Assembly (NCBI GenBank): GCA_018652625.1
Contig: JABIBT010000008.1
Coordinates: 1 to 35,067, forward strand
DNA: 35,067 nucleotides
Direction of reading: 5' to 3'
From: Candidatus Woesearchaeota archaeon
GTDB lineage: Archaea > Nanobdellota > Nanobdellia > SCGC-AAA011-G17 > PNOQ01
Made by a program: the position numbers and the translations under genes. The notes beneath the pieces were generated by a model that did no database searches, was not told the DNA's origin, and saw only the letters and a program-made list of their open reading frames with translations. Of the stretch, positions 3,032-19,260 are shown in pieces. Position 1 is the stretch's first letter. The number at the start of each line of letters is the position of its first letter.

Positions 3032-3436
3032 TTATACTCTTCTACCCCTTCTACCGCCCTTTTTTCTGCATCCATCATGTGGCACCGGAGTTATTTCCTC
3101 TATGTTTCCAATTTTGAGACCTGCTCTGGTTAATGTACGTATTGCTGCTTGTGCTCCTGGTCCTGGAGACATTGGCCCATTGTGTCCACCCGGGGCACGA
3201 ACCTTTATATGAACAGCATTTATTCCCTTTTCTATTGCGTTTTCTGCTGCCATTCTTGCTGCAGACATTGCTATAGTTGGGCTAGATTCTAATCTATGTA
3301 CTTTTGTTAACATTCCACCAGAACTTTTTGTTATAGTCTCTGATCCAGTTATATCCGTAATATGAATTATTGTATTATTATAAGATGAGTAAATATGTGC
3401 TACTCCCCACTTTAATTTTTTACCTTTATGCATCAT
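3032..3436 (-). CDS. rps11: 30S ribosomal protein S11 (uS11)
   Basis: [51 protein letters not shown]. Confidence 0.97.
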
Positions 3437-4160
3437 TTTTTGTTTCCTTTGGGAGATCTTTTGTTAGTTCTTTTTTTGATTGTTCTACAACTTCATCTGC
3501 TACCTTTTCAGCTGCTTTTTCTGGCATTTTCTTTTCTAACTCTTCTTTTATTTCTTCCTTAACTTCTTCCTTTACTTTTTCTTTAACTTCTTCTTTCTTC
3601 TTTGGCTTTAAGATTTTTTCTTTTTTCTCTTTTTCCAATTTCTCTTTAACTGTCCTTTCTGGATGGTCTGCTTTTGAAATTGAAGAAAGTGGACTAAATT
3701 TGATTTTTGATTCTTCATTTTTTGAAACTAAGAAAGAAGGAGCAGTGACTTTTTTGCCATCTACCGAGATATGGCCGTGTGTAATAAATTGTCTAGCTTG
3801 ATTTGTTGATCTAGCAAATCCATTTCTGAAAACGATAGTTTGTAATCTCCTTTCTAAGAAGTCTTTTACTTTTAAATCTAGGATATCTTCAATTTTTGAA
3901 TCTTTTGAGATTATATTATATCTGAGTAATTTATTCATTAATTGTTCTCTTTCTTTTGCACTTTGTTCTGAACGTACATTAGCAACAATTTTTTTTACTT
4001 GATTTCTTGCAGATCTTAATTTTGAGGCATATTTCCAAATTTCTTTTTTGTTTTTTAGACCATACTCTCTAAGAATCTCTTTTTCTTCTATTATTCTTTC
4101 TCTCTGCCAGGGATGAAATGGCGTTTGATATTTCTTTCTTATTCTTTTAGTCTGGCCCAT
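3426..4160 (-). CDS. rps4: 30S ribosomal protein S4 (uS4) with a long charged C-terminal extension
   Basis: [26 protein letters not shown]...[15 protein letters not shown]; about 75 extra E/K-rich residues after HPER. Confidence 0.96.
3444..3581 (-). repeat. Copy 1 of a 46-codon peptide module shared with the FtsY N-terminus
   Basis: [46 protein letters not shown] aligns without gaps to 17894-18031, 32/46 identical. Confidence 0.85.
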
Positions 4161-4161
4161 T

Positions 4162-4611
4162 TTATTTCTTCTTTCTCTTTACTCCAAGAGACTTCCCTTT
4201 TCTAAAATTAGATTTTGTTCTTTGCCCTCTTACAGGTAATCCAGATCCGTGTCTAAATCCTCTATACGACTTTATTTTTCTTAATCTTTTTATATCAAAA
4301 TCTTTTCTTAATTTTAAATCGGATACAGTTAAATGTAAATCTTCTCCAGAATCATAATCTTTTTGTCTGTTTAATAACCAAGAAGGAATGTTGTGTTTTT
4401 TTGGTTCTTTTATTATTTCTTCTATTTTTTTTATTTCTTGTTCTTTTAGAGAACCAGTTTTTTTATTTTTATCTAATTTATTAACATAACATATGGCATT
4501 TGCCATGGAAAAATTTACTCCCTTTATTCTTGTTAGGGTATGAGATATAGGTTTATCTCCCGCTAAATCTGTAGAAGCTATTCTTACAATGTATTTTAAT
4601 TTCTCTTCCAT
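4162..4611 (-). CDS. rps13: 30S ribosomal protein S13 (uS13)
   Basis: [43 protein letters not shown]. Confidence 0.97.
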
Positions 4612-4652
4612 TCTCTGTTTTTGATGTTAGTACGCCCTTTTTAAAGCTTTTG

Positions 4653-5216
4653 TTAGATTTGTACAAATAATTTACGTTTATCCTCGTCGTTTAGTTCTGC
4701 AAAAATTCTCCTTACTACTACTTGCATCGGGTCAGGGATTAACTTTACCCTTTCTTTTATATCTTCGAAGCTTTTGAACTCTTTTTCTTCTCTTTTTTCT
4801 AGTATTTCTGTTGTGTGTTTCTTTCCTATTCCCGGTAGTAATTCTAATTGATGCATTCTTGTATTTATTGGACCAGCTTGATTGAAGAAATCTATAAATC
4901 TTTGCTCGTTTTTTGAGATTAATTCTTTTACTACAAAGTCTAATTCCATCCTAGCAGTCTGGGTTAATTTTGAAATTGTGATTTTTCCAATTATATGGTG
5001 TATTTTTTCCCTTTCTTCTCCACCAATATAGGCTTCTTCGTAAGGTTGTAAAAATTTTCCTTTTTTTGGAACTAATTCTAGAAGTGTAAAATGATCACGA
5101 CCTACAGCTTGAGCTATGGGAGACTTTTGATGTAATGGTCTCCTGTCTGATGGATATCCGTTCGGGAGGAAATCCAAAATAATTGCATGGTCTTCCTTTG
5201 TTGCTGGCCTTATCAT
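4653..5216 (-). CDS. DUF655 family putative nucleic-acid-binding protein
   Basis: ILDFLP.G, AQAVG...FTLLEL, FFN.AGPI.TRMHQLELLPGIGKK helix-hairpin-helix; canonical position after rpoF. Confidence 0.9.
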   Translation of the reverse strand: MIRPATKEDHAIILDFLPNGYPSDRRPLHQKSPIAQAVGRDHFTLLELVPKKGKFLQPYEEAYIGGEEREKIHHIIGKITISKLTQTARMELDFVVKELISKNEQRFIDFFNQAGPINTRMHQLELLPGIGKKHTTEILEKREEKEFKSFEDIKERVKLIPDPMQVVVRRIFAELNDEDKRKLFVQI

Positions 5217-5224
5217 TTTTTTTA

Positions 5225-5554
5225 TTAAGCATGTTTTTTCACTATTTTCATTATTTTGTCTAAATCCTCTTGCTTTAGTGTAAGGTTTTCACCTGAGAGG
5301 ATGGTTCTTAAGCTGTCAATGTCTGTTGGTAATATATTGATTATCAGTGTTATGTGTTTTTCTTTTAATCTTGTTATTCCTGCAGATTCTAATTCTTTCT
5401 TTAATTCCTTATATGTTTTTGTTTTTGTAACGTTATTTAGATATTCCTCTACTTTTTTTGCTCTGAAATTTAATTCTTTATCTCGCTTTTTCATTGCATC
5501 TATATTTCCTTTCATTTCAGGAATATTTATTGGGATTTGTTTAATTATTTCCAT
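5225..5554 (-). CDS. rpoF: DNA-directed RNA polymerase subunit F (Rpo4)
   Basis: ELNFRA....EYL, I.NILP.D.D.LR.IL, I..IV; canonical rpl21e-rpoF-DUF655 order. Confidence 0.88.
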   Translation of the reverse strand: MEIIKQIPINIPEMKGNIDAMKKRDKELNFRAKKVEEYLNNVTKTKTYKELKKELESAGITRLKEKHITLIINILPTDIDSLRTILSGENLTLKQEDLDKIMKIVKKHA

Positions 5555-5556
5555 TT

Positions 5557-5844
5557 TTACCTTCTCTTTAAGTGGGATGGGTGAGTTAAAATTGATTTTA
5601 TTTTGTTCCCATCCTTTATTTCTACATAATAATTTGAACCTTGTTTATTTTTGATTATTCCTGCTTTTCCATGAAATCTTGGATTGTATAATCCTTTTTG
5701 AATTGCTGGTTCTGCTACTAAATATACTAAGTCTCCAGTTTCGAAGTTCTGGAAGAACCTTCTAAGGCTAATCTTTCCTTTTGTTCTGACACTTTTTTTT
5801 AATTTGTGCCTTGTTTTCCTTCTTAAACCGCCTATTCGTTTCAT
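5557..5844 (-). CDS. rpl21e: 50S ribosomal protein L21e (eL21)
   Basis: G.RRKTRHKL.K..R.KG, F..GD.V, P...KG...PRFHGK.G, HP.HLK. Confidence 0.96.
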   Translation of the reverse strand: MKRIGGLRRKTRHKLKKSVRTKGKISLRRFFQNFETGDLVYLVAEPAIQKGLYNPRFHGKAGIIKNKQGSNYYVEIKDGNKIKSILTHPSHLKRR

Positions 5845-5895
5845 TTTTGTATACCTTGAAATAATGGGAATTATGTTGCTTTATAAATGTTTTTG

Positions 5896-6165
5896 TTAGT
5901 CTAGAAATTCAGATAATGACCGGTCTAAAGCGAAAAATAAGTTAGGATTTTCTGATTCTGATTTTTTTGTTTCAGAAGTTTCTAATTCTACTTTTATTTT
6001 GTATTTTGAATCCTTTACTAAGGTTACTGTTATTTTTTTGAAATCTTTTTCTTTTTCTGAGATTTTTTTTGTGTAGTTTCCAACTACCTTTTTAATTACT
6101 ATTAATAGCCCTCTATCCACGTCTTCAAAGTTCTCTAAATTTATGTTTCCACCTAATTCTATCAT
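5896..6165 (-). CDS. Small hypothetical protein, possible HPF/RaiA-like fold
   Basis: Pattern suggests beta-alpha-beta-beta-beta-alpha, ending in NLFFALDRSL, which resembles the HPF motif DLY.AID.A; inference only. Confidence 0.5.
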   Translation of the reverse strand: MIELGGNINLENFEDVDRGLLIVIKKVVGNYTKKISEKEKDFKKITVTLVKDSKYKIKVELETSETKKSESENPNLFFALDRSLSEFLD

Positions 6166-6214
6166 ACTACTATCTTTAGGGTATGTTTGATTTAAGCTTT
6201 TCTATTGATTAGAA

Positions 6215-6556
6215 TTAATCATATTGTTCCAAGTCTAAATTCATGTCTCTTTGTATGATTATTGGCGAATCTTGAACTATTCTATATATTTTTGAATCAT
6301 CTGAGGATTCTTCAATTGCCACCTGTCCAGGTAGTTCTTCAATTACTCCTAGTTCTTGTAGAATTTCTAAATCCTCTTGCCTATACTGGTCATTATTAAT
6401 CAAATTTTTTTCCGCAAATGTGTTAAAAGCATTTTCGACATCCCTTAAACTAAACTTAGCTGCATTTAGGTCGCTCATTATACGGTCTAATAATCCAAAT
6501 GCTTTAGTTGTTTCTTTTTCTTGAATTATTTCTATACTGTCAAAAGTTTTTACCAT
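6215..6556 (-). CDS. Hypothetical protein (possible winged-helix)
   Basis: 113-aa ORF with an upstream TATA-like element (TTTATAAA near 6583-6590); DLEILQELGVIEE...KIYRI is loosely wHTH-like. Confidence 0.55.
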   Translation of the reverse strand: MVKTFDSIEIIQEKETTKAFGLLDRIMSDLNAAKFSLRDVENAFNTFAEKNLINNDQYRQEDLEILQELGVIEELPGQVAIEESSDDSKIYRIVQDSPIIIQRDMNLDLEQYD

Positions 6557-6620
6557 TTTTCTAATTTTATCGGTTATTGTTTATTTATAAATCTTTCTAT
6601 TTGTTATTACTATATAATAG

Positions 6621-8300
6621 TTATATTTTCTTTATTACATATGGCCCTTCTTTTTTGTAACCTAATTTATAGTAATATTCTCTTACTCCAACTCCAGAAA
6701 TAACTACTATTTTATCCTTACCTTCTTTTTTTGCAATTTCTTCTGCTGTCTTCATCAATTTTTTCCCGTATCCCTTGTGTTGGACAGTTCCACTTTTTTT
6801 TAATCCTATGGAGGTTCCGTAAACATGTAATTCTCTTATTAATGCAGATTTTTTTGTTATTTCTTTTCTTAACGATTCTGAAGGAAAACGCATCCGTATA
6901 AATCCAACCAATAAATCATTCTTTGTGTCTTCTGCAGAGATAAAAAATTCTGTTCCTTTTGAGGCTTTATACTTTTGAGTTTTTATTTTAACTTTTTTCC
7001 AATCTATCTCTTTACCCATAGGCTCTCTACAACGTATGCAATTACATTTTACATCATATTTTTGGAATAAATATTGTCTGAAGTTTGTCATTTCTACTCC
7101 AGCTACCCATTGTTTTGTTGGAATGTCTCTTTGAATCCTCATAATTCTACAATATTTTGGAACATGTTTTTTGAATTTGACTAATAATTCTGCTGCATCT
7201 TTTATTGATAGTGGTTTAAATTTTCCTTCTTTGTATTCTTTGTATAATATTGTTCCTTTGCTAACCATTGTTGGATATATCTTTAACATGTCTGGTTTGA
7301 AATCTGGATTTTTGAATAGACTTATCATTCCTTCTAAATCTCTTTTTTTTGAGGTTAATGGTAATCCTGGCATGTAATGTATGGCTACTTTGAATCCCAA
7401 ATCTTTTAATATTCTTATGGAATCTTTTGTGTCTTTTACTGTGTGGCCCCTATTTACTTTTTTTATAACATCTTCATATACAGATTGTACTCCCAACTCT
7501 ATTCTAGTTGTTCCAAGTTTCAACATATGATTTCCATGATCTAGTAAGCCCCAATCTGGCTTTGTTTCAATACATAATGCAACACATCTTACTTTTGCTG
7601 TTTCATTTATCTTTTGTTCTTTTGTTAATGTTGTTTTTCCTTTTAACTTTAGAAGTTTTTTTTGTATTCTTAGTGTTCTTTCTTTATCTGAAAAGTTTTC
7701 TGTTGGAAGTTCATACACGTCTTTGAATTTTGTGTAATTTAATTCTCCATTTTTGTTAAAAAATAATCCTGAAAAATCGTTCAATGCTTTGAATGTAAAT
7801 TTTATGAACTCTTCTTGGTATTTTTTTGGAAATGAAGGAAATGTTCCCCCCATAATAATTAGTTCAATTTTTTCAAAATTATGGCCTAGGAGAACATATT
7901 GTTCTAATCTGTTAAATATTTGTAGATAAGGATCAAAATTATTTCTTATAGCTCTCATGGTTGCCGGTTCTCCGCCAGTGTAAGACTGTGGAACATTCCC
8001 GAATGTTGAATTTGGGCCACCTGGGCAATAAATACATTTTCCGTGTGGGCACGAAATGGGTTTTGTCATTATTGCTAATGGTGCCACCCCAGAAATTGTT
8101 CTTACTGGTTTTGTTAAAAGTCTTGGTTTTAGTAACTTTATTTTATTTTGTGGAGCATGGATTAAAATATCTATAAAACTTGGAAGTCTTTTTGGTTTAT
8201 GTTTTTTTGCTAGTGCGTCCCTTAGTTTTATTATATCTTTTTTATCTTTTAGATCTTTATCTAAGATTTCTTTTATTAGTAATTTACAAAATTTTTTCAT
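6621..8300 (-). CDS. elp3: Elp3 tRNA uridine(34) carboxymethyltransferase (radical SAM + GNAT)
   Basis: KPVRTISGVAP, CPHGKCIYCPGG, QSYTG.EPA..RA, R.ELGVQS, RELHVYG, QHKGYG, VISGVGVREYY.KLGY. Confidence 0.96.
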   Translation of the reverse strand: MKKFCKLLIKEILDKDLKDKKDIIKLRDALAKKHKPKRLPSFIDILIHAPQNKIKLLKPRLLTKPVRTISGVAPLAIMTKPISCPHGKCIYCPGGPNSTFGNVPQSYTGGEPATMRAIRNNFDPYLQIFNRLEQYVLLGHNFEKIELIIMGGTFPSFPKKYQEEFIKFTFKALNDFSGLFFNKNGELNYTKFKDVYELPTENFSDKERTLRIQKKLLKLKGKTTLTKEQKINETAKVRCVALCIETKPDWGLLDHGNHMLKLGTTRIELGVQSVYEDVIKKVNRGHTVKDTKDSIRILKDLGFKVAIHYMPGLPLTSKKRDLEGMISLFKNPDFKPDMLKIYPTMVSKGTILYKEYKEGKFKPLSIKDAAELLVKFKKHVPKYCRIMRIQRDIPTKQWVAGVEMTNFRQYLFQKYDVKCNCIRCREPMGKEIDWKKVKIKTQKYKASKGTEFFISAEDTKNDLLVGFIRMRFPSESLRKEITKKSALIRELHVYGTSIGLKKSGTVQHKGYGKKLMKTAEEIAKKEGKDKIVVISGVGVREYYYKLGYKKEGPYVIKKI

Positions 8301-8324
8301 AGGTTTTGTAAAAAAGAAGTGCTT

Positions 8325-8846
8325 TTATTTGTTTCGGAATATTTTAGGTATTTCTTTTTTTCTTTCTTTTCGCCATTCTTCTATTTCTTTAGGCTTTTGC
8401 CAACTTTCATATTTCGATTTTGCTTGCGTGGTTAAATCAGTAATTATTGATTCTGCATTTATTTCATCTATATTTGATGTTATTTCTAATACTCTTTCAT
8501 CCCAAGCTAATCTTTCTTTACCTTTCTTTTCTAAAAGAAAAGGACTTATTAATTCCCCGTTTGATAAATCTACATAAATAGTATAAACTCCTCCCTTTAT
8601 TGAAGAATCTATTGACCAATATCCAGATGAAAATGCTCTATTATAACTATCTGAATATCCTCCCCTTCCCTGTGCTTCAAGTGCTAGATTTGGGACCTTT
8701 AGCCATAATCCTGATTGAGATAAAGAGTATTCGCGAATTGATATTACTAATTGTCTTTCTAGTGAAGAATATTCATCAAGAAGTTTTTCTAGTGCAACCC
8801 TCTTTGAATGTATGTCTGGAGTGAGCATATTTTTGAGAAATGTCAA
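8325..8846 (-). CDS. Hypothetical protein
   Basis: 173-aa ORF with protein-like composition and an upstream TATA-like element (minus CTTATATA near 8852-8859); no family recognised. Confidence 0.6.
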   Translation of the reverse strand: MTFLKNMLTPDIHSKRVALEKLLDEYSSLERQLVISIREYSLSQSGLWLKVPNLALEAQGRGGYSDSYNRAFSSGYWSIDSSIKGGVYTIYVDLSNGELISPFLLEKKGKERLAWDERVLEITSNIDEINAESIITDLTTQAKSKYESWQKPKEIEEWRKERKKEIPKIFRNK

Positions 8847-8903
8847 TTATTTATATAAGTTTTGTAATAGTAATCTTTAAAAATGACCTTTTTTTAAGAA
8901 TTC

Positions 8904-9170
8904 TGTAGGATAGCTGGGTGGTTAGCCCTCACTTGTACCGCAAACGGGCTATATGGCGGAGTGAAGCCTAATTGAGGCTGAGAAGTTAATTATCGGTCTC
9001 AGTTTGGACGTTGATCCTTTGTCTTACAGGGTTAATGTCTTAGAGAACTAAGTCAGGCCAGGAATGGAGCAGCTTTAATCTTTGATATTGGCGCTTGTGA
9101 GTAGCAAAGGGGAGGAAGAACTGGGGTTAAGCTGGTAGTTGATTTCTTTGTCGATTTTAGGTGTCCTGCA
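8904..9170 (+). ncRNA. ffs: Archaeal signal recognition particle RNA (7S RNA)
   Basis: Helix 8 signature GTCAGGCCA-GGAA-TGGAGCAGC (9052-9073); Alu-domain TGTA motif near 8934; terminal helix TGTAGGATA/TGTCCTGCA; long helix 5 pairings; upstream TTTAAA box and downstream T5 run. Confidence 0.93.
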
Positions 9171-9173
9171 TTT

Positions 9174-9707
9174 TTATTGTAATGCTATTTCTATTCCTAC
9201 CTTAAATTTATCTCTTCCGGGTTCGTTATAATCTCGGTTATTAAAATAATTTCTTTTATATTGGAATAATAATGAATATCTATCATTTAATTTTTTTATT
9301 AATTCTGCTCTAAGATAACATCCTGGAATCAATCGTTTCATGTGATTTGTAGTGTCTGCTATTTCTGGATAAAATTCTTCAGTTAGTACTAACTGTTCAC
9401 CGGCTCCGAAACCTAGTCCTAAGGAATAATTTTTAGTTAATTTTCTTTCTAACATTAAATCTATTAGATGTTCTTCGTTTGTTCCTTCTGCTGTAAAAAA
9501 TAAACCAAATTTTCCTTGATAATTTTCATTAAGTTGTTTATTAACGCTAAATCCTAATTCTATATTTGCGTGAACTTTACTGGCCCCCAAACCACAATAA
9601 ATAGAATAATCTCCAGTATCTAAATCTATAGTTCTTGGTACTGCATTTGTATTTGCTGATAAGAAAAGTAATAATGTGGCTGTTTTTATTTTATTTGATA
9701 AATTCAA
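9174..9707 (-). CDS. Secreted protein with an outer-membrane beta-barrel-like pattern
   Basis: N-terminal signal peptide (K-K, hydrophobic core, TNA cleavage), about eight amphipathic strands, and a repeated turn motif KQLNENY/RKLTKNY/KKLNDRY. Confidence 0.6.
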   Translation of the reverse strand: MNLSNKIKTATLLLFLSANTNAVPRTIDLDTGDYSIYCGLGASKVHANIELGFSVNKQLNENYQGKFGLFFTAEGTNEEHLIDLMLERKLTKNYSLGLGFGAGEQLVLTEEFYPEIADTTNHMKRLIPGCYLRAELIKKLNDRYSLLFQYKRNYFNNRDYNEPGRDKFKVGIEIALQ

Positions 9708-9744
9708 TGTTTAAATGAAAGGGGAGATTAATTTAAATAATTTT

Positions 9745-10194
9745 TTAAAATTCTGCTAAAATATCACTTAAACTTTGAGCTAGAATATTATACATTTTTT
9801 GTATTGTTAACTCATATATTGCTTCTTTTAGTGGCCCTGTACAATGTGGGAGAATTTCTGTTGTAAATGTTGATCCTTTTTCTAATTTACAGTCCATAGA
9901 TTTTCCTTCGAAAAGTTTTGCTGTATCTGGATCTGTTTCAATTGGCATATCGACCAAAGTTACTCTTGTTTTACATTGGTTATTTTCTTTTCCTGTTATT
10001 TGATATATAAAAGTTGAACCTTCATCCATTACTGTTAGTTTTGTTTTTTTACAATTTTCTAGATGTCTATTATAACATGATTTATCTTCTTCACAATCAA
10101 ACTCATAGGAATAATATAATATGCCTATTGCAAAAATAAGAATTACTATAATTGGTATTAAAACAATACTCCTCCTCTTTTTCTTCTTCTTCAT
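9745..10194 (-). CDS. Membrane-anchored Cys-rich extracellular hypothetical protein
   Basis: Basic N-terminus, one TM helix, six Cys, including GKSMDC and C.GPLKEA motifs. Confidence 0.75.
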   Translation of the reverse strand: MKKKKKRRSIVLIPIIVILIFAIGILYYSYEFDCEEDKSCYNRHLENCKKTKLTVMDEGSTFIYQITGKENNQCKTRVTLVDMPIETDPDTAKLFEGKSMDCKLEKGSTFTTEILPHCTGPLKEAIYELTIQKMYNILAQSLSDILAEF

Positions 10195-10235
10195 ATAAAA
10201 GAAAAAAAGGAGTTATTGTTTTATTAAGTTTTCGA

Positions 10236-11495
10236 TTATAGGTCTGCCTTTGTTATTATTTTGACTTTCATCGATCTTTGAACTTTTGAAGACATTGCAA
10301 CCAAATTCTTTATTCCTACTCTTTCTGAGAGTTTTACTAAATCTATGTCTATTTCTCCATCAAAGATTACAGTATTTATTCCAGATTTTAAAGATTTGAT
10401 TGTTGTTGCCAATTCAGAAGTTGGAACTTTTCCTAGAATGTTTGTGTCTTCATCTAATATGTAAGCTCCCCTTGTACCAACTAAGTCATCTATCATTTCT
10501 TTGTATAATTTTGTTTCTGTAGGTGTTATTCTTGCTTTTCTTATTGGAGGTCTTGCACTCGTCTCTGTTTTATATTTCGTTGCTGTAGTTGTTCTTGTTG
10601 TTCTTGCTGCTGTCCTCGGTGCAGTAGTTCTTCTTTCTGAAGTTTTAGCTGTTGTAGTAGATCTGGTTATCTCTAATTTTGATTGTTCTGCAGCTACTTT
10701 ATTTCTCAATGCTTTATTTATTTCTTTTTTTGTTAGCTCTTCCACTTCTTTTCCATCTGGTGCTTTTACTATGTAATCTATTTCTGCTACGCTCATTATT
10801 TCTTTTATAATTAAATCTCCGCCTCTGTCTCCATCCACAAAAACCGTTACTTCTTTTCTTTTACTTAAATCGATAATTGTCTGAGGTACAGATGTCCCAT
10901 TTAATGCAATTGGATTTTTTATTCCATTTTTCAGTAAAGTTAGTACGTCTGCCCTTCCTTCAACTACGATTATTTCATCAGATTCTTCTATAATTGGTCC
11001 TGCTGCTAACCTATCTTTTCCATATTCTATAAGTTCCATCATTCTTACTGAATGTGAAACTTCTTCTGTTATTTCTTGAGAATCGGGTAAAACATTGTCC
11101 GTAAATTCTCTCAAAAGTTCTTTTGCCCTGTCTACAACATAAGCTCTTTTAGATGTTCTTACATCTTCTATATTTTTTGATACTACCTTGGCATTACATG
11201 GACCAATTCTTTGTATTGTCTCCAATGCCGCTGCAATAATCGCTGTTTCAGCTTTGTCTAAACTTGACGGAATTATTATCTCTCCGCTAGCTTTTCCACT
11301 TTTTGTTGTTAAATTTACTTCGATTCTACCTATTTTTCCATTTCTTTGAAGTTCTCTTAATTCTAAGTCTTCTCCAAGCAGGCCCTCTGTTTGACCGAAT
11401 ACTGCTCCGATTACGTCAGGTCTGTCTACTGTTCCTTCAATTGTGATATTAGAGTGAACTATATATTTAGCTGCTACTAAGCCAATTTTTCCCAT
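10236..11495 (-). CDS. dnaG: Archaeal DnaG-type primase (TOPRIM; exosome-associated)
   Basis: KY......I.G.VDRPDVIGAVFGQTEGLLG..L.LRELQ..GKIGRI, IIVVEGRADV, F.DGDRGG, APDGKEVEEL; SD GGAGG at 11504-11508 (minus). Confidence 0.96.
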   Translation of the reverse strand: MGKIGLVAAKYIVHSNITIEGTVDRPDVIGAVFGQTEGLLGEDLELRELQRNGKIGRIEVNLTTKSGKASGEIIIPSSLDKAETAIIAAALETIQRIGPCNAKVVSKNIEDVRTSKRAYVVDRAKELLREFTDNVLPDSQEITEEVSHSVRMMELIEYGKDRLAAGPIIEESDEIIVVEGRADVLTLLKNGIKNPIALNGTSVPQTIIDLSKRKEVTVFVDGDRGGDLIIKEIMSVAEIDYIVKAPDGKEVEELTKKEINKALRNKVAAEQSKLEITRSTTTAKTSERRTTAPRTAARTTRTTTATKYKTETSARPPIRKARITPTETKLYKEMIDDLVGTRGAYILDEDTNILGKVPTSELATTIKSLKSGINTVIFDGEIDIDLVKLSERVGIKNLVAMSSKVQRSMKVKIITKADL

Positions 11496-11695
11496 TTTAT
11501 TTTCCTCCTATGCTTTTAAAACCTAAAAAGAACAAGTTCGTCGTTTTATTTAAACGATTCCTTAACAAATAAATGTAATGTTTTAAATGAATATGATTTT
11601 TTGTTCTTTAAAGGTTTGTAGCCCGATATTAACCCCAAAGCTCATAGCTTGATGTTACATCGTTGGCTCCATTTGGTAAATTCTCTTACCGGGCC
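11496..11695 (-). ncRNA. Structured 5' leader or small RNA upstream of dnaG
   Basis: GC-rich island starting about 25 nt after TATA box TTTATAAA (11719-11726). Stem GGCCCGGTA/TATCGGGCT encloses hairpins GATG-TAA-CATC and AGCT-ATG-AGCT; a second long stem is AAACCT..AAAGAACAA/TTGTTCTTT..AGGTTT. Confidence 0.65.
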
Positions 11696-11735
11696 TTGAT
11701 AGAAGGTTTTGATTTTCGTTTATAAAGGTTTGGAT

Positions 11736-12233
11736 TTACTTAAATTTATGTAGATTTAGATATGATTTTGTTCTGTGAAATATATCGTGAGCATCATCAA
11801 TTAGCTCTTTTTCGTATCTTTCTCTTCTTCCAGTTGATATAAATTTATCAAATATTGCTCTTGTGAATTTCATAATTGGGTTGTTTTCCCATTTTTGTTC
11901 ATAATCTGTTTCTATTGATGCTTCATACTTGATAGTCAGGTTTCCGTTTACTGTTTTTCCTTGTTTTGTTTCTATAGTTTTATAATTTTTTAGAGAAATT
12001 GATAAGTTTATGAGATATCTTGAATAATTATCTATATATTTTTGTCCTTCCCACTTTATTTTTACTGATTTTCTCTCTCCTTTTATTATATCTTCATATT
12101 CTCTTTCATAGAAATTGTAATTGTGGAGATCAAACCATGCCTTTAGAGTTCTGTACAACTCTATCATGTTGAACTGGGCCTCTTTTTTTATTACTAATTT
12201 ATCTCCCCTAATTATCCAATCTTGTTCTGGCAT
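11736..12233 (-). CDS. Hypothetical protein, paralogue 3 of a tandem triplet
   Basis: FN..ELY..LKAW....Y.FYE...I.W...K....Y..Y...G.L.I...A...DY..KW, shared with the two neighbours. Confidence 0.85.
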   Translation of the reverse strand: MPEQDWIIRGDKLVIKKEAQFNMIELYRTLKAWFDLHNYNFYEREYEDIIKGERKSVKIKWEGQKYIDNYSRYLINLSISLKNYKTIETKQGKTVNGNLTIKYEASIETDYEQKWENNPIMKFTRAIFDKFISTGRRERYEKELIDDAHDIFHRTKSYLNLHKFK

Positions 12234-12271
12234 ATATAAATTTTAGAAAATGGAATATATAAAGTTTTTCT

Positions 12272-12781
12272 TTAGTATTGGTGCATTGTTAAGAATGATT
12301 TTATTTCATCGTGGAAAGCATACGTTTTTGCATATAATTCTATTTTATAATCGTCTATTCTATCTTTTATTATAAACTTTTCATAGATGGATTGGCCCAA
12401 TCCCTTTCTTTCTCCCCATTTTTTACTTCTGTCTGTTACAATATTTGATTTTATTCTTAGTTCTACTTCTCCACGCTGTATTTTTATTTTTTTCCCTTCT
12501 TTTTCTATTTCTATATCTTTTAAACCCAAAATAAAAAATCCAATTCTGAGATGATATGCGAAATAGTCACTTTTGTTTTTTTGAGCACTCCAACGTATTT
12601 CTATTTGTTGTGATTCTCCTTTCATTCTTTGTGCAAATTTTTCTTCCTGAAAATTATTATCTTGATCTCCATATCCTTGGTAGTCTAACCAAAACTTCAT
12701 GTGTTTATATAGCTCTCCCAGATCAAATATTCCTCTCCACTTCATTTTGATTTCTGGGACCACAGTAATTGTATCTTGCAT
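12272..12781 (-). CDS. Hypothetical protein, paralogue 2 of a tandem triplet
   Basis: GIFDL.ELY..MK.WL...GY...F.E...IEI.W.A.K...DY..Y...GEVE..I.S....D...KW. Confidence 0.85.
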   Translation of the reverse strand: MQDTITVVPEIKMKWRGIFDLGELYKHMKFWLDYQGYGDQDNNFQEEKFAQRMKGESQQIEIRWSAQKNKSDYFAYHLRIGFFILGLKDIEIEKEGKKIKIQRGEVELRIKSNIVTDRSKKWGERKGLGQSIYEKFIIKDRIDDYKIELYAKTYAFHDEIKSFLTMHQY

Positions 12782-12816
12782 ATCTTAAATTTTGTTGATG
12801 AAGTTTATAAGTTTTT

Positions 12817-13299
12817 TTATCTGAAGAATTCTAATACTTCTTTTGCTGTTTTCTGAAGATCTTTTACTTCCTCTAAAAGTTTAAGTTTATTTTTTGTTAT
12901 ATTCTCTTTGATTAGAACATTGGTGTATAGTCTGAATAAAAGATTTTTAATTCTTGATGAGGACCATTGCTCTCTGTAGTCTAGAACTACACTGGCAGTA
13001 AATGTTATTTTTGAGGTTCCTGAAACCAGGTTGTCTGAAGCAGGATGTAGTTCTTTAAATCTAAATTTTATTACCATATCATATTTCATAAAATCTGTTA
13101 TTTCTCTTTCTGCTTTCCATATTAATCCTATCTCATCACCTATATCTATTTTTTTATGTTGGTGATCTGCTTCTAAGAAATCATAGCCGTTTTCATCTAG
13201 CCAAGCATGCATTGTTTGATATAGCTTTTCAAGATTAAAAACACCTTTGTGTCTTATTTGGTATCCTTCGCTTACTTGGGCTTTTATTTTCTTACTCAT
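12817..13299 (-). CDS. Hypothetical protein, paralogue 1 of a tandem triplet
   Basis: GVFNL.KLY..M.AWL..NGY.F.E...I...W.A.R...DF..Y...G...ITF.A....DY..QW. Confidence 0.85.
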   Translation of the reverse strand: MSKKIKAQVSEGYQIRHKGVFNLEKLYQTMHAWLDENGYDFLEADHQHKKIDIGDEIGLIWKAEREITDFMKYDMVIKFRFKELHPASDNLVSGTSKITFTASVVLDYREQWSSSRIKNLLFRLYTNVLIKENITKNKLKLLEEVKDLQKTAKEVLEFFR

Positions 13300-13335
13300 A
13301 GAATAGAGAATAAAAATAATAGTTAATAAATGTTT

Positions 13336-13761
13336 TTATCTTCCTTTTATCCTGAATTTTTCTATAAATATATCATATAAATCTGGTTGAATCTTTAGAA
13401 CGTCCTTGTAGGTTAGTAGTCCAACTAGTTTTTCTCCATCTGTTACAGGAAGTCTTCTTACATTTTCTCTTGACATAAAGTAAATTGCGTCGTATAAATC
13501 TAAAGTTGGAGAAATTTTAAGCATAGTAGTAGACATAATATCTTTTGCTTTAGATTTTTTTATATTTAATTCATTTGTAATTGCTTTATTTACGAAATCT
13601 TTTTCTGTAATTATTCCTAAGAGTTTTCCATTTTCTTCTACAATAAGGCTCCCAACATCTCCTTTAATCATTTTAGCTGCACACTTCAGTAAGTTCTCTT
13701 CTGGGCCTACAACTATTGGAGATTTTGTCATTGCATCCATAACTTTTATGCCAGTTTTCAT
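13336..13761 (-). CDS. CBS domain pair protein
   Basis: V.DAMTK.P, VGSLIV...[23 protein letters not shown]....KLVGLLT.KD. Confidence 0.93.
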
Positions 13762-13827
13762 CTTAATTTTATACTATTTTTTGAATTAATAAGTATATTG
13801 GTGATGAGTTTTTTTAGATTTCTTATT

Positions 13828-13843
13828 CAAAACCTTTATAAAT
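13828..13843 (+). promoter_or_regulatory. BRE/TATA promoter of the thermosome gene (near-leaderless)
   Basis: AAAACC-TTTATAAA about 25 nt before ATG 13867; the same layout recurs at many genes in the window. Confidence 0.65.
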
Positions 13844-13866
13844 GGACTTGGATTTCTCGGATTAGA

Positions 13867-15471
13867 ATGGCAGACGATAAACAACCAGTATACATCTTAT
13901 CTGAAGGAAATCAGAGGACTTATGGGAAAGAAGCTCAGAGAAACAATATTATGGCTGCTAAGTTAGTGGCTGAGACAGTAAGAAGTACCTTGGGCCCTAA
14001 GGGAATGGACAAAATGCTGGTTGATTCTATGGGCGATGTTGTTATTACAAATGATGGTGTTACAATCTTAGAAGAAATGCAAATTGAACATCCTGCAGCT
14101 AAAATGATTGTTGAGATTGCTAAAACTCAAGAAGATGAAGTTGGAGATGGTACAACTAGCGCGGTTGTTTTTGCTGGCGAATTATTAAAAAATGCTGAAA
14201 GTCTATTAGAAAAGAATATTCATCCTACTATTGTTGCTAAAGGTTTTAGATTAGCAGAAAGTAAAGCTCAGGAAATTTTGAATGAAATAGCAGAAGATGT
14301 TTCTTTAGATAATGAGGATATACTTGAAAAAATTGCTATGACTGCTATGACAGGAAAAGGTGCAGAAGCTTCAAAGGAAAAGTTAGCTAAATTAGCTGTT
14401 GGTGCTGTAAAGCAAGTTTTAGATGATAATATAGATTTGAATAATATTAAAGTTGAGAAAAAAGTTGGTGGCGGTGTTGAAAATTCTGAATTAATACAAG
14501 GAATTGTTTTAGATAAAGAGAAATTACATTCAAGTATGCCTTCTAAGATTAATGATGCTAAAATTGCATTGATTAGTGTTCCTTTAGAAATAAAAGATAC
14601 TGAAATTGATGCTAAAATTCAAATTACATCTCCTGAGCAGATGCAAAGCTTTATTGAGCAAGAGGAAAATATGTTGAGAAGTATGGCTCAGAAAGTAATT
14701 GATTCTGGTGCTAATGTTTTAATATCTCAAAAAGGAATTGATGATTTGGCTCAACATTATTTAGCTAAGGCCGGAGTTTATGCTGTTAGAAGAGTTAAGC
14801 AATCAGATATGGAAAAATTGATTAGAGCTACTGGTGGAAAAATTGTTAGTAACTTGAAAGATTTAAGTGAATCTGATTTGGGTAAATCTGGTTTGGTTGA
14901 AGAAGTTAAAATTGGAGATGAAGAATTTACTTATGTTACTAATTGTGAAAATCCAAAAGCTGTTACGTTTTTAGTTCGGGGTGGAACTGAGCATGTTGTT
15001 GATGAAGTTGAAAGAGCAATTCAAGATGCTTTGGGTGATTTAGCAGCAGCTTTGAAAAATGGAAAAGTTGTTGGCGGTGCAGGTGCTCCAGAAATAGAAT
15101 TGAGTAAAAGATTAAGAGAATTTGCAAATACTTTAAGTGGTCGTGAACAATTAGCTGTTTTAGCTTTTGCAGAATCTATGGAAGCGATTCCAATTACTCT
15201 GGCTGAAAATGCAGGTATAGATCCAATTGATATTTTGACAGAGTTAAAAGCTAGACATGATTCTGGAGATAAATGGGCAGGTATTGATGTCTTTTCTGGA
15301 AAGGTTGTTGATTCCTGGAGTGCGGGTGTAATTGAGCCTTTGAAAATTAAGACTCAGGCTATAAAGAGTGCAGCCGAGGTTTCAGAGATGATTTTAAGGA
15401 TAGATGATGTGATTGCTTCTGGAAAAGGAAGTGGTCAAGCTCCGATGCAACCTCCAATGGGTTATGAGTAA
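13867..15471 (+). CDS. ths: Thermosome subunit (group II chaperonin)
   Basis: [38 protein letters not shown]; ATG at 13867 ([11 protein letters not shown]) preferred to GTG at 13798. Confidence 0.97.
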
Positions 15472-15502
15472 GATTTATAAAATTCTATTTTCAATTTAAA
15501 GT

Positions 15503-16135
15503 ATGTTTTTCAAGAAAAAAGAGGATTTTTTGAAATTTTCTACAAAGATCAAGAAATTTTTAGACGTGGGCAATTTTGATTCTGCTATTGCCCGTTATAC
15601 TGAATTTGAGAAAAGGTTTAAGAAATTAGATTCTGAAAAGAAAGAAGAGTATCGGGAAGAGTATGAATCTGTGGTTAAACAATTATTGATTTATATGAAA
15701 ATTCGTGATTTGAATGTAATCATTAATGGGGATGATGTGGTGTTGATTAATAGTTCTTTAAATTATTTGAAAGATATACAGGAGGATACAATTGGAATGC
15801 CTGAAAAATATTCTAATTTCGTTAAAAACAAATATCTTGGATTTTATAATAGGTATAGCTATAAGTTGGCTTTACTAGAATTGAATAAATCTTTAGATAG
15901 AGTTTACAAATTAAAAGACGAACAAAATTATGATATGGCTTTAGAATTCTTTCCAGAAGTTATGAAGAAGTATCGAGAGTTGGAGGAGTATTTGCCCGGA
16001 GAGTCTAAGAAGGTTTTTGGAAAACTTATAGAGTTAAGAGAAGAACTTAAACTTGATTTGATGGAATTTAGGGCACATAGTCCGGTTGCTGAGGTGAATG
16101 TGAAAACTTTGAAACGAAGTTTGAAGAAAAAGTAA
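15503..16135 (+). CDS. Hypothetical alpha-helical protein
   Basis: 210-aa ORF with two similar helical segments (GNFDSAIARYTEFEKRFKKL / QNYDMALEFFPEVMKKYREL). Confidence 0.7.
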   Translation: MFFKKKEDFLKFSTKIKKFLDVGNFDSAIARYTEFEKRFKKLDSEKKEEYREEYESVVKQLLIYMKIRDLNVIINGDDVVLINSSLNYLKDIQEDTIGMPEKYSNFVKNKYLGFYNRYSYKLALLELNKSLDRVYKLKDEQNYDMALEFFPEVMKKYRELEEYLPGESKKVFGKLIELREELKLDLMEFRAHSPVAEVNVKTLKRSLKKK

Positions 16136-16167
16136 GTTATATTAATTAAAGAATACTCTCTCTTTTT

Positions 16168-16590
16168 ATGGATTGGAATTTAGAGGATTATGGATTTGAT
16201 GAAGAAGGACTTAAGGGAAGGATTTTGGGTTCTTTTGAAGATAATGGCATTGCCCCAGTTGAAGATGTTTTAAAGATTAATTATGGGAGAAAAGGAGTTG
16301 TTGAAGTTTCTTATGTTGCAGATTCTGTTGATGTTAAATTTGATATTAATTTTGAATTAGAGGAAGGTTGGAAGTTTGAAGGAAATCAAATTAATTTATG
16401 GCTTTATTGTGGTGGAGAAGAATTGGGGACCAAAGTAGATAGGGCAATGCAAAGTTTGGCTAATAAACTTAAGTTAGGTAGAGTTTTAGTTAGTGGTCTT
16501 GATGATGAAGATGAGAAGTTTTGGCTTGAAAAGAGAAGTTATGAGTCTGCGGGTAGTGGAACCATGGGTATAAAATTAATAGATTTCTAA
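16168..16590 (+). CDS. Hypothetical protein, possible degenerate GNAT fold
   Basis: ELGTKV......LA..L....V.V......KFWLEKRSY resembles GNAT motifs A and B. Confidence 0.55.
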   Translation: MDWNLEDYGFDEEGLKGRILGSFEDNGIAPVEDVLKINYGRKGVVEVSYVADSVDVKFDINFELEEGWKFEGNQINLWLYCGGEELGTKVDRAMQSLANKLKLGRVLVSGLDDEDEKFWLEKRSYESAGSGTMGIKLIDF

Positions 16591-16627
16591 TAGTAAATTA
16601 TATTAATGTTTTAGTGTTCACTTTTTT

Positions 16628-17773
16628 ATGGTTTTTAATGTGGTGTTTAGGGAAACTGGATGTTGTCTTCCTGAGAGGATTGTTTCTAATTCTGATTTTG
16701 AAGACTATGAATTTTATACTTCCGAGGGAAAGCCAGAGATCCAGCCTACTGCTCAAATTATTAGAAAGGCTGAAAGGAGATTTGGGATTAAAGAAAGAAG
16801 GTTGGCTAGAGAGGATCAAGTTGCTTCTGATTTGGGTGCAATAGCTGTGGCAAATTCTGGAGTTGATACTAATTCTTTGGATATGATTATTGGAGCATCA
16901 AACTATGGAGATATGGTGGTTGGAGATGTTGGTTATCCTACTTGTGATTTTGTTCCTAGTTTGGCTTCGAGGGTTGCTAGAAAAACCGGGCTTGTTGGGG
17001 AAGGGAAATACTTTAAGAGTTTTGATTTAATTGATGCCTGTGCAGGAGGTTTAGAATCTATGTTTGTTGCTGAGATGTACATTAGAAATAATATGTTTTC
17101 TGAAATTAATAAAGCTGGCGTTGTAGCCATGGAAACTTTATTTAGAGTTGGAGATACTTCTAGTAAAGATATATTGCTTCTTGGTGAGGGGGGAGCGTTT
17201 GTTGCTCTTGAAGGAGTTGAGAGTGATAGAAAAGAGGGCATTCTTTCTTGTGCTACTCAAACTGTTCGTTATTTTGTTCCTAAACTTGGAATAGATTCGA
17301 AGATGGAGCCCGTTACTGATTGTTCAAAGTACATTACATCTGGAGTGCCAAATAATCCTGCTTTGAGAGATGGACGTCGCTGCTTTAAAATGCTTGGACC
17401 TTTTGTTAAACAGGTTGCTAGTGAATATGTCCCGCTTGTTGCTAGAAGGGCAATGGAAAGGGCCGGAGTTGGTGTTGATGAATTAAAACTACTTATTTTT
17501 CATCAAGCGAATGCAGATATGGTTAATGATATGGCCTTAGGAAGTGGGGTTAGGGCGGATGATCTTGACAGGAAAGTCCCAATAACTAATGATTGGCTTG
17601 CTAATCAATCTCTTGTTTCTACTCCAACTATATTGGATCTTGTTTATAGGGGTAAGTTAACTAGTCCTAAAAGTCATGTTTATAGTATTAATCCTGGAGA
17701 TAAAATATTAATTGCTACTGTTGGTGGGGGCATTAGTGCTAATGCTATGGTGTATCAGGAACCTATGCGTTAG
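16628..17773 (+). CDS. fabH: 3-oxoacyl-ACP synthase III (FabH/KAS III)-like condensing enzyme
   Basis: TG..LPERIVSNSDF, FGI.ERR, catalytic triad FDLIDACAG (Cys), IFHQAN (His), LANQS (Asn), and GDKIL...VGGG. Confidence 0.85.
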   Translation: MVFNVVFRETGCCLPERIVSNSDFEDYEFYTSEGKPEIQPTAQIIRKAERRFGIKERRLAREDQVASDLGAIAVANSGVDTNSLDMIIGASNYGDMVVGDVGYPTCDFVPSLASRVARKTGLVGEGKYFKSFDLIDACAGGLESMFVAEMYIRNNMFSEINKAGVVAMETLFRVGDTSSKDILLLGEGGAFVALEGVESDRKEGILSCATQTVRYFVPKLGIDSKMEPVTDCSKYITSGVPNNPALRDGRRCFKMLGPFVKQVASEYVPLVARRAMERAGVGVDELKLLIFHQANADMVNDMALGSGVRADDLDRKVPITNDWLANQSLVSTPTILDLVYRGKLTSPKSHVYSINPGDKILIATVGGGISANAMVYQEPMR

Positions 17774-17803
17774 TTTTATAAGTTTTAGTTAAAGGTTAGT
17801 TTT

Positions 17804-18916
17804 ATGTTTAAATTTTTAAAAGATAAATTAAAGGATGCTGCTAAGAAGTTTTCTAAAGAGGCAGAGGAAGTTACTGAAGAACCTAAAGTTGAAGAAAAAG
17901 TAAAAGAAGAAGTTAAAGAGGAAATTAAAGAAGAGTTAGAAGAAGTTTTAGATGAGAAGACTTCTGAGAAAGTTGCTGAAGAAGTGGTTAAAGAATCTAA
18001 GGAAGAAATTATTGAAGATATTCCAAAAGAAGAACCTAAAAAGGAAAAGTTAAGTTTTAAAGAAAAATTAAAAAAAGCTGTTTCTAAGAAAATTTCTAGC
18101 AAAAAGTTTGAAGAGTTGTTTGATGAGTTAGAGTTATCATTATTAGAAGCTAATGTTGCTGTTGAAGTTATTGATAGATTAAAAGAAGGTTTGAAGATGG
18201 AAATTGTTGATATTCCTATTAAAGGGAAGGTTGATGAGTTTATTTTAGAGAAGTTAAAAGATAATATTAAAGAGTTGTTTAAGGAAGAGTTAGATTTAGT
18301 TGAAGTTATTAAGAAAAGTGAGAAACCTTATGTTATTGTATTTTTGGGTGTGAATGGTTCTGGAAAAACTACTTCTATAGCTAAAGTTGCTAAATTGTTG
18401 CAGAGTAATGGTTTAACTTGTGTTTTGGCTGCTGCAGATACTTTTAGAGCTGCTGCGATAGATCAGTTACAGTTACATGCTGATAAGTTAGGAGTTAAGA
18501 TGATTAAGCACGATTATGGCTCGGATGCTGCTGCTGTAGGTTTTGATGCTATAAAACATGCTAAGAATAAAGATGTTGATGTGGTTTTAATTGATACTGC
18601 TGGCAGAATGCATTCTAATTCTAATTTAATGGATGAGTTAAAGAAAGTTATCAGGGTTGTTAATCCTAATTTTAAGATATTTGTTGGAGAGTCAATAGTT
18701 GGTAATGATTGTATAGAGCAGAGTAGGAAGTTTAGTAGTTCTGTTGGTGTGGACGGTATAATATTATCTAAGGCTGATGTTGATGAGAAAGGTGGAACTG
18801 CTATTTCGATTTCTTATGTTGTTGATAAACCCATAATTTATTTGGGTACTGGGCAGGGCTATGGGGATATTGAGAAGTTTTCTGTTAGTAAATTGATGGA
18901 TAGTTTGGGGCTTTAA
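17804..18916 (+). CDS. ftsY: Signal recognition particle receptor FtsY
   Basis: MF.FLK amphipathic start, acidic domain, GVNGSGKTTSIAK, AADTFRAAAIDQL, DTAGR, KADVDEKGG, GTGQ.Y.D. Confidence 0.97.
   Translation: MFKFLKDKLKDAAKKFSKEAEEVTEEPKVEEKVKEEVKEEIKEELEEVLDEKTSEKVAEEVVKESKEEIIEDIPKEEPKKEKLSFKEKLKKAVSKKISSKKFEELFDELELSLLEANVAVEVIDRLKEGLKMEIVDIPIKGKVDEFILEKLKDNIKELFKEELDLVEVIKKSEKPYVIVFLGVNGSGKTTSIAKVAKLLQSNGLTCVLAAADTFRAAAIDQLQLHADKLGVKMIKHDYGSDAAAVGFDAIKHAKNKDVDVVLIDTAGRMHSNSNLMDELKKVIRVVNPNFKIFVGESIVGNDCIEQSRKFSSSVGVDGIILSKADVDEKGGTAISISYVVDKPIIYLGTGQGYGDIEKFSVSKLMDSLGL
17894..18031 (+). repeat. Copy 2 of a 46-codon peptide module shared with the uS4 C-terminal tail
   Basis: [46 protein letters not shown] compared with 3444-3581. 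Confidence 0.85.
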
Positions 18917-19260
18917 AATAATTTTTCTAACTCTTTTTTTACTTTCTCAAATGTTTTATCATCAAGAACCCCTATTTTCTTTTTAACTAATGATTTGTTT
19001 AGATTTATAATTTTATCAACTTTAATTCTGCTCGTAGTTGGTAGTTTTCCTTCAATTAAATTTTTACTTTCTATTAATACTGAGCATCTTGCATCTTTTA
19101 AGTTGGAAGTTATCCCACAAACTATGAAATCTTCAGTATTAAAATTATAAGTATCATTGGAAACAATTAAAACGGGTCTTTGTTTGATGGTTGTAAGATC
19201 TGTAAATGGTAAGGGAATTATTAAAATGTCTTTTTGTTTAAATTGTGTCCCAGATGTCAT
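18913..19260 (-). CDS. PemK/MazF family toxin (type II TA endoribonuclease)
   Basis: DI.I.P.PFTDL...KQRPVLIVSND.YN, V.GITS, L...S.IKVDKI..L.KS......G.L. Confidence 0.92.
   Translation of the reverse strand: MTSGTQFKQKDILIIPLPFTDLTTIKQRPVLIVSNDTYNFNTEDFIVCGITSNLKDARCSVLIESKNLIEGKLPTTSRIKVDKIINLNKSLVKKKIGVLDDKTFEKVKKELEKLF

Follow-up and report, generated by a model that had tools for sequence, protein, structure and literature searches.

A lineage-restricted peptide module shared by the tails of ribosomal proteins and the SRP receptor FtsY in marine Woesearchaeota

Introduction

Why would a protein of the small ribosomal subunit and the receptor of the signal recognition particle (SRP) carry the same peptide? 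The question is raised by a DNA stretch of 35,067 nucleotides from a Candidatus Woesearchaeota archaeon (contig JABIBT010000008.1 of assembly GCA_018652625.1; the whole stretch is called the window here, and its genome G000), in which a 46-residue segment of the C-terminal extension of ribosomal protein uS4, rich in glutamate and lysine (E/K-rich), resembles a segment of the N-terminal region of the SRP receptor FtsY. Few genes are known to be as conservative as those for ribosomal proteins and FtsY, which seldom exchange domains. A preliminary description of the window, made from its sequence, had proposed that the peptide is a portable helical tag under protein-level selection, which might tether 30S subunits to FtsY by homotypic pairing or recruit both proteins to a common partner or site. 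In this work we show that the shared peptide is real, and sequence comparisons indicate that it is a module present on at least four ribosomal proteins and on the SRP receptor in one small archaeal clade, in which its carrier has changed repeatedly. The features concerned are the following.

3426-4160, minus strand: rpsD, ribosomal protein uS4, 244 amino acids (open reading frame, ORF, and Pfam S4 domain at residues 104-150, 6e-16)
3429-3650, minus strand: E/K-rich C-terminal extension of uS4, about residues 171-244 (read against 30 uS4 orthologue tails)
3444-3581, minus strand: module copy 1, uS4 residues 194-239, predicted helix-loop-helix (profile match 3e-20)
17804-18916, plus strand: ftsY, SRP receptor, 370 amino acids (Pfam SRP54_N at residues 86-136 and SRP54 GTPase at 176-368, 8.8e-68)
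17804-17863, plus strand: basic amphipathic N-terminal stretch of FtsY, residues 1-20, conserved across FtsY N-termini
17894-18031, plus strand: module copy 2, FtsY residues 31-76, acidified, placed after the N-terminal helix and before the N domain (profile match 8e-18)

Results

The uS4 and FtsY copies

The uS4 gene stands in the row uS13-uS4-uS11-RpoD/Rpb3, and its product scores 58.4 bits against the Pfam S4 domain (PF01479, cut-off 22.8). This protein consists of an S4 core followed by a lineage-specific E/K-rich C-terminal extension, the proximal part of which is common to the genus and the distal part hypervariable among relatives; the native 3' end of the gene is retained downstream of the module copy. 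FtsY has an SRP54_N helical bundle and an SRP54-type GTPase (PF02881 and PF00448, with scores of 228.3 and 23.8 bits for the two) and, having no M domain, is distinct from Ffh, and by analogy its residues 1-20 would be a membrane-targeting helix. Both peptides are what we call tail modules, that is, matches to the module profile at E<=1e-5 over about 46 positions, within a terminal E/K-rich extension of a larger protein.

Aligned without gaps, uS4 residues 194-239 and FtsY residues 31-76 are identical at 32 of 46 positions, and their first 16 residues are the same, with four synonymous and no non-synonymous codon differences, exactly as the preliminary description had it. The likeness also goes beyond composition, as had been claimed: none of 3000 composition shuffles reached 32 identities (mean 12.6, maximum 18, z 14.7), the BLOSUM score of the pair is 165 for a maximum of 80 in 3000 composition shuffles, and the last 30 residues taken alone are identical at 16 of 30 positions (maximum 12 over 3000 shuffles). 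In the 658-kb genome (5237 six-frame ORFs) the two copies match each other reciprocally at 68 bits, the next ORF being at 34 bits, and when 46 E/K-rich segments from 43 ORFs were compared all against all, the uS4/FtsY pair came top of 192 cross-protein pairs, with 75 bits.

E/K-rich segments are found in G000 in the ribosomal proteins uL10, uL1, P1, uL11, eS24, eS6, eL31, uS3, eL32 and uS4, and also in prefoldin and other proteins. The tails of eS24 (G000:C3:16905-17282) and eS6 (G000:C3:26768-27250) have in common a proline-containing E/K segment, 50% identical over 60 amino acids (43 bits), a further example of tail sequence common to ribosomal proteins that are not related to each other.

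Assembly and history of the pair at the DNA level

The region 3300-4300 of the window is present in 19 DNA runs from 17 marine or seawater metagenome studies. Contigs of runs X11, X13 and X18, which come from three studies not flagged as source of the assembly, bridge the uS4 core, its tail and the module with zero to two differences; the X11 contig (3415 nt) covers all of 3300-4300, the X13 contig 3300-4182 and the X18 contig 3300-3657. An independent genome of the same genus, G003, has the same uS4 tail (protein 93% identical) and the same synteny with ftsY. The module on uS4 is thus not an assembly duplicate, as the preliminary description had held. The RNA run X20 covers only 3998-4134, which lies in the uS4 core.

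The two module copies form the strongest inverted repeat of the window (56 nt, 91%). We compared them by a same-codon test, used in place of the NG86 estimate of synonymous divergence (dS), which is infinite for this pair and is inflated by two-fold codons. The same codon is used at 17 of the 32 identical residues, for 18.6 expected from genome codon usage (z -0.6); the first 17 columns show 12 of 16 same codons for 9.6 expected, and the rest of the module 5 of 16 for 9.0. The 56-nt repeat is explained by identical residues and codon bias, which suffice to produce it (12/16 for 9.6), and since same codons are no more frequent than expected over the whole module, the uS4/FtsY likeness is maintained at the protein level. 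Orthologous copies, unlike this pair, share 34 of 37 and 37 of 40 codons, and among carriers only its G003 orthologue (34/37) shows a codon excess to the window uS4 copy. These counts indicate that the uS4/FtsY pair is not a recent DNA copy.

Several assemblies of relatives break in or beside the module. The ftsY gene of G003 is split over two contigs (end of C10, start of C57) that overlap at the module end, contig-end fragments are found in G001 (ftsY, C15:2-241) and G010 (C4:1-99 and C19:1-99), and uS4 of G002 ends at residue 162, at the end of contig C21. The module is a repeat that breaks metagenome assemblies at ftsY, uS4 and uS3, and that can yield chimeric gene models.

Distribution of the module

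The set of relatives comprised 41 genomes, with a uS4 orthologue found in 40 and FtsY in all 41; G000-G005 make up the window's genus, and the module-bearing genera are g1, g3 and g6. A profile search of the relatives found 21 places in 13 of the 41 genomes, and across the order the module was found in 13 of 240 genomes and 3 of 132 genera, all of one family. In the three genera at least one copy, on varying carriers, is present in 13 of 14 genomes, the sole genome devoid of it being G018 (87% complete).

In the window's genus, G000 and G003 carry the module on uS4 and FtsY, G001 on FtsY only, G002 on FtsY (its uS4 tail being cut by the contig end), G004 on eL31 and FtsY, and G005 on eL31. Among the 29 complete uS4 tails of relatives, all of which are E/K-rich and unrelated in sequence beyond the first 20 residues or so, only those of G000 and G003 hold the module, and G001, G004 and G005 of the same genus are without it. 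The FtsY module, present in G000-G004, is absent in G005 and in every other genus among the relatives examined, and FtsY proteins of the other genera of the family have unrelated N-terminal regions. Modules were also found in the C-terminal tails of eL31 (G004, G005, G007, G013, G015 and G023) and of uS3 (G010, G015, G021 and G023), and the profile matches in G010 and G024 were confirmed to lie inside eL31. Genera g3 and g6 carry the module on eL31 and/or uS3, never on FtsY, and it is gone from eL31 in G000, G001, G002 and G003. When 17 copies from 13 genomes are aligned over 46-47 columns, no copy deviates at positions E10, E13, V27, A28 and E38, while L15, K26 and S35 are almost invariant.

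The profile matched only five of 1.84 billion representative proteins at E<=1e-3: a uS3 fragment, an eL31, a uL22, a 217-residue protein without Pfam match and one unrelated repeat protein. The uL22 (P0004, 402 amino acids) has two tandem module copies in a 260-residue tail; the 217-residue protein (P0003) combines an N-terminal part homologous to G000:C36:4556-5446 with a cassette identical to that of G023 uS3. A further search, among the 8000 candidates scored that shared most words with the module, drawn from 5.8 billion protein clusters (longer proteins), gave 62 carriers, of which 26 are eL31, 16 FtsY, 15 uS3, three uS4, one uL22 and one unassigned. A separate search for stand-alone module proteins of 24-83 amino acids found none among the 8000 candidates it scored, which is weak evidence, and of 600 pattern matches of the module alignment in genome contigs none was confirmed by tblastn. 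The search for other carriers has thus added eL31, uS3 and uL22 to uS4 and FtsY, and with at least five carrier families the peptide is portable, as had been proposed.

Pfam gave no match over uS4 residues 171-244 or FtsY residues 1-85. The best hit of a PDB sequence search with the module was a stretch of FtsZ at E 0.52, Foldseek against PDB gave nine matches, all at E>6, the ESM Atlas gave no usable match, and in the open-access papers searched we found none describing the module or shared tails in DPANN ribosomal proteins. Judged by its sequence, the module is a specific, lineage-restricted family, without a curated family, solved structure or paper in the searches made.

The VPTAxELAKKK end motif

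A C-terminal motif, VPTAxELAKKK, lies within about 15 residues after the module in 19 of 26 eL31 and 15 of 15 uS3 carriers, and is absent after the module in the FtsY (0/16), uS4 (0/3) and uL22 copies. The eL31 alignment shows in order a conserved core, a gappy linker, the conserved module and the motif; the truncated P0028 is not among the rows of alignment A4. In G000 the motif occurs three times on ribosomal proteins and once on a probably spurious ORF, with zero to three matches in shuffled ORFs:

G000:C9:214-762: eL31 with two VPTAxELAKKK motifs
G000:C17:11863-12729: uS3 with one VPTAxELAKKK motif

The motif is far more conserved than the module, with proportions of non-synonymous (pN) and synonymous (pS) differences between orthologues of 0-0.03 and 0.43-0.54. 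It is also seen on uS4 tails of genus g5 (G009, G017 and G022), and eL31 of G021 has four tandem variants of it.

Phylogeny of the copies and homogenization of tails

A species tree was built from the uS4 core and the FtsY NG domain of 27 genomes (445 columns), genomes without either locus being left out, as was G001, in which FtsY is a fragment. It gives the branching (G005,(G002,(G004,(G000,G003)))) in the window's genus and groups g3 with g6. The module tree (79 rows, 47 columns) excludes P0005, the unrelated repeat protein, and matches of fewer than 39 profile positions. Here all FtsY copies group together in a clade without any of the uS4 copies (94/95), with one change on the tree, in 98% of bootstrap trees. 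The uS4 copies need two origins, one for the clade G000/G003/P0041/P0062 and one for P0024, which falls among g6-type eL31 and uS3 copies and retains the C-terminus typical of its genus after the module. By this branching and the same-codon counts, the uS4 and FtsY copies of the window are two separate, old recruits and not copies of each other.

The eL31 and uS3 copies are intermixed on the module tree (16-17 changes), and four sets of rows that are identical come from different carriers. In G015, and likewise in G023, the modules on eL31 and uS3 agree at 44 of 47 positions, with an excess of same codons (z 3.7 and 5.0), whereas orthologues between these two genomes are identical at only 35-36 of 47. 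In five of eight genomes, G018 included, the best match of the eL31 tail is the uS3 tail of the same genome. The eL31 and uS3 tails of G018 have in common a near-identical non-module stretch of about 45 residues that ends in the VPTA motif, and homogenization of the tails of these two genes is therefore independent of the module. Together, these comparisons indicate that eL31 and uS3 tails are homogenized within genomes. P0015 (uS3) and P0019 (eL31), for each of which the longest contig has 236,654 nt and which are therefore probably from one contig or genome, have an identical tail of about 70 residues.

Selection, charge and predicted structure

Between orthologues the module shows pN values of 0.09-0.23 and pS values of 0.23-0.65, a ratio of 0.22-0.39, and for FtsY of G000 and G002 the pN of the module (0.14) is below that of the NG domain (0.22). 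A ratio near 1, which the preliminary description regarded as speaking against its proposal, was not found; these values and the same-codon counts of the uS4/FtsY pair (17/32 for 18.6 expected) point, as that description had supposed, to purifying selection on the protein as what holds the likeness of the modules.

AlphaFold2 (AF2) predicts helices at positions 2-16 and 21-41 of the isolated module, with a predicted local distance difference test (pLDDT) of 81.8 and a predicted template modelling score of 0.55. In full-length eL31 these helices are predicted again, together with a short one that covers the end motif. The helical nature proposed for the peptide is thus likely according to these models. 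Mean net charge differs between carriers, FtsY copies being at -16.2 (range -19 to -11), eL31 copies at -5.9, uS3 copies at -6.8 and uS4 copies at -6.4. A complex prediction from uS4-module and FtsY-module alignments (score 0.02, mark 0.32), made without controls, weighs neither way.

Other features of the window

3426-3436, minus strand: stop region of uS4 and start codon of uS11, overlapping by 11 nt, from ORF coordinates (uS11 at 3032-3436)
8904-9170, plus strand: archaeal SRP RNA (Rfam RF01857, 111.9 bits)
19643-20989, plus strand: Ffh/SRP54 with SRP_SPB M domain, a separate gene (Pfam)
23382, 25247 and 27396: three tRNAs

SRP RNA (8904-9170), ffh (19643-20989) and ftsY (17804-18916) all lie in the window, as first described. 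Between ftsY and ffh, on the minus strand (18913-19492), are genes for a PemK/MazF-like toxin of 115 amino acids and a MazE-like antitoxin of 84. Long F/S/L-rich ORFs run antisense to the two E/K-rich tails, at 3370-3801 on the plus strand (143 amino acids) and at 17785-18102 on the minus strand (105 amino acids); we read them as probable by-products of the purine-rich coding strand rather than genes.

Discussion

On balance, and with some caution, we favour the view that the window holds two copies of a mobile, lineage-restricted module of about 46 residues that resides in terminal tails, and that uS4 and FtsY recruited it separately. Within one marine Woesearchaeota clade (three GTDB genera of one family), ribosome-associated proteins carry it in terminal extensions that are E/K-rich and exposed to solvent. 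The C-terminal tail of eL31 is its commonest home and probably the original one, and in g6 it is also found on uS3; on these two proteins it forms a cassette with the conserved VPTAxELAKKK motif, in tails that are homogenized within genomes. It would have entered the acidic N-terminal region of FtsY once, in the window's genus after the split of G005, uS4 tails at least twice, and also uL22, and may have spread by illegitimate recombination or gene conversion between stretches of purine-rich low-complexity coding DNA.

As for function, analogy with known systems suggests that on ribosomal proteins the module may be a helical handle, held on a flexible charged tether and recognized by a shared ligand, and that the acidified FtsY copy may serve in the A region as a spacer that sets the NG domain apart from the membrane-binding helix; this suggestion is tentative, and we regard it as more doubtful than probable. 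Recruitment of the carriers to a common partner or site, as the preliminary description envisaged, is possible. A stronger version, which seems to us unlikely, is that the module and VPTAxELAKKK together are a shared docking tag on proteins of the tunnel exit and mRNA entry and on the SRP receptor, for one partner or for each other; in that case the ribosome surface would be connected with the targeting machinery through an exchangeable peptide address, which would have moved among carriers and been matched within each genome by gene conversion or co-selection.

Several observations weigh against the view that we favour or against parts of it. No binding partner is established for the module. 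The carriers lie at different ribosomal sites (the tunnel exit for eL31 and uL22, the mRNA entry for uS3 and uS4), which argues against one site-specific role. The tails of G018 are without the module, which is therefore dispensable in at least one lineage. Between the four closest pairs the pN of the module is 1.4-4.7 times that of the ribosomal core (0.089-0.112 versus 0.019-0.074), and in full-length eL31 the tail has a pLDDT of only 40-56, so that a stable fold is not established. As to history, the module tree is built on no more than 47 columns and leaves many of its forks unresolved; the node that would give the donor of the uS4 copy is among those not resolved, and no carrier has a codon excess that would point to it. 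The branch that sets the three module-bearing genera apart has weak support (69/91). Finally, P0003, the sole non-ribosomal carrier, comes from one contig of 1417 nt and may be a chimeric assembly.

The main rival to the handle model is that the module is a generic charged helical spacer, an interchangeable E/K-rich segment without specific partner that lengthens or solubilizes tails, spreads by recombination of low-complexity DNA and is kept for a helix-compatible E/K pattern and a few small or hydrophobic residues. It would fit with the 29 complete uS4 tails being E/K-rich yet unrelated, with E/K-rich segments in ten ribosomal proteins of G000, and with the existence of other tail segments common to protein pairs (eS24/eS6, eL31/uS3 and the non-module stretch of G018); the low pLDDT in the full-length protein, the faster evolution of the module compared with the cores and its loss from eL31 in four genomes (G000, G001, G002 and G003) also go in this direction. 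A spacer kept for its pattern does not readily account for position-specific identity that outlasts complete randomization of synonymous sites, or for uncharged residues that are invariant (V27 and A28) or nearly so (L15 and S35); in addition, the linkers are gappy and variable and the module is not, and all but one of the 14 genomes in the three genera retain at least one copy. We consider this explanation rather unlikely.

That homotypic pairing of modules tethers the 30S subunit, via uS4, to the SRP receptor is improbable, although both G000 and G003 have the module on uS4 and on FtsY and, outside its own orthologues, the uS4 copy is most identical to FtsY copies (32/46). This part of the preliminary description has to be given up as it stood, because in close relatives the presence of the module on uS4 and on FtsY is not correlated: G001 has it on FtsY only, G004 on FtsY and eL31 and not on uS4, G005 on eL31 only, and g3 and g6 never on FtsY. 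Like-with-like pairing is also disfavoured by charge, as FtsY copies have a net charge of -11 to -19 (mean -16.2) and ribosomal copies are net negative too (about -6 to -7). Moreover, uS4 is on the small subunit, away from the site at the tunnel exit where SRP and FtsY dock.

That two E/K-rich sequences of low complexity came to look alike by chance or convergence is very improbable: it is true that hydrophobic-K-E-E recurs regularly over the first 16 residues, that unrelated tails such as those of FtsY in G037 and G012 have short runs of this kind, and that the 56-nt repeat is explained by identical residues and biased codons (12/16 for 9.6), but none of 3000 shuffles matches the pair, even over the last 30 residues, the next best unrelated ORF is at 34 bits versus 68, and the profile matches only five of 1.84 billion proteins at E<=1e-3. 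A recent DNA duplication or gene conversion between rpsD and ftsY, or an assembly chimera, has next to no probability, since against the top rank of the copies among the window's inverted repeats and the breaks of relatives' assemblies at the module (ftsY split in G003, fragment at a contig end in G001) stand the lack of a shared-codon excess (17/32 for 18.6; rest of the module 5/16 for 9.0), 14 amino-acid differences between the copies, junctions spanned by contigs from three other studies and an FtsY clade that excludes the uS4 copies.

In conclusion, this clade offers a natural experiment on the role of ribosomal-protein tails in organisms with tiny cells and genomes, and the 46-residue peptide and the 11-residue end motif are concrete handles for partner searches.

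Comparison with known systems

The module resembles two classes of charged sequence in its high E+K content, its predicted helix and its alternating charge. KEKE motifs are runs of at least 12 residues with more than 60% K plus E/D and no W, Y, F or P, and the first 16 residues of both window copies have this composition (12 of 16 K or E, no W, Y, F or P). ER/K single alpha-helices are long uninterrupted helices without conserved hydrophobic positions; this description does not apply to the module, in which a break is predicted at 17-20, V27 and A28 are invariant and L15 is nearly so. Unlike either class, the module is a specific sequence family with conserved uncharged positions (L15, V27, A28 and S35). 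A literature search on KEKE motifs and the ribosome found nothing relevant.

The A domain of FtsY contributes to association with the membrane, the translocon or SRP54; such domains are held to differ from protein to protein and to be little conserved. The FtsY copy of the module has the position and acidity of an A domain, as residues 31-76 precede SRP54_N (86-136) with a net charge of -11 to -19, and like an A domain it is strongly acidic, follows a basic amphipathic N-terminal stretch and is N-terminal to the N domain. It differs in being a recognizable module, common to ribosomal proteins and kept in five of the six genomes of the genus. The putative membrane-targeting role of residues 1-20 given above is drawn from what is known of FtsY (bioRxiv 10.1101/2022.04.13.488184).

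Long tails, predicted to be flexible, on surface ribosomal proteins link the module carriers to the flexible coat or terminal extensions whose composition and disorder have been surveyed, in the accessible text without coverage of archaea (bioRxiv 10.64898/2026.06.18.733196), and to the lineage-specific terminal extensions treated in a related survey (PMC11764897). A discrete module that moves among ribosomal proteins and FtsY is not described in these sources, as far as their searchable text goes. What is unusual here is modularity, mobility among unrelated carriers including FtsY, and homogenization within genomes; in other respects these tails are lineage-specific ribosomal-protein extensions.

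In its logic the system comes nearest, in our reading, to the ribosomal stalk. The proteins of the stalk (uL10/P0 and P1/P2), the genes of which are present separately in G000, have a conserved C-terminal peptide in common, borne on flexible acidic tails; they are paralogues at one ribosomal site, and the ligands of the peptide are translational GTPases. In both systems the same peptide sits on the charged tails of different ribosomal proteins, here as a conserved island after a variable linker. In contrast with the stalk, the module carriers are unrelated proteins at different sites, with FtsY in addition, and the system is confined to three genera.

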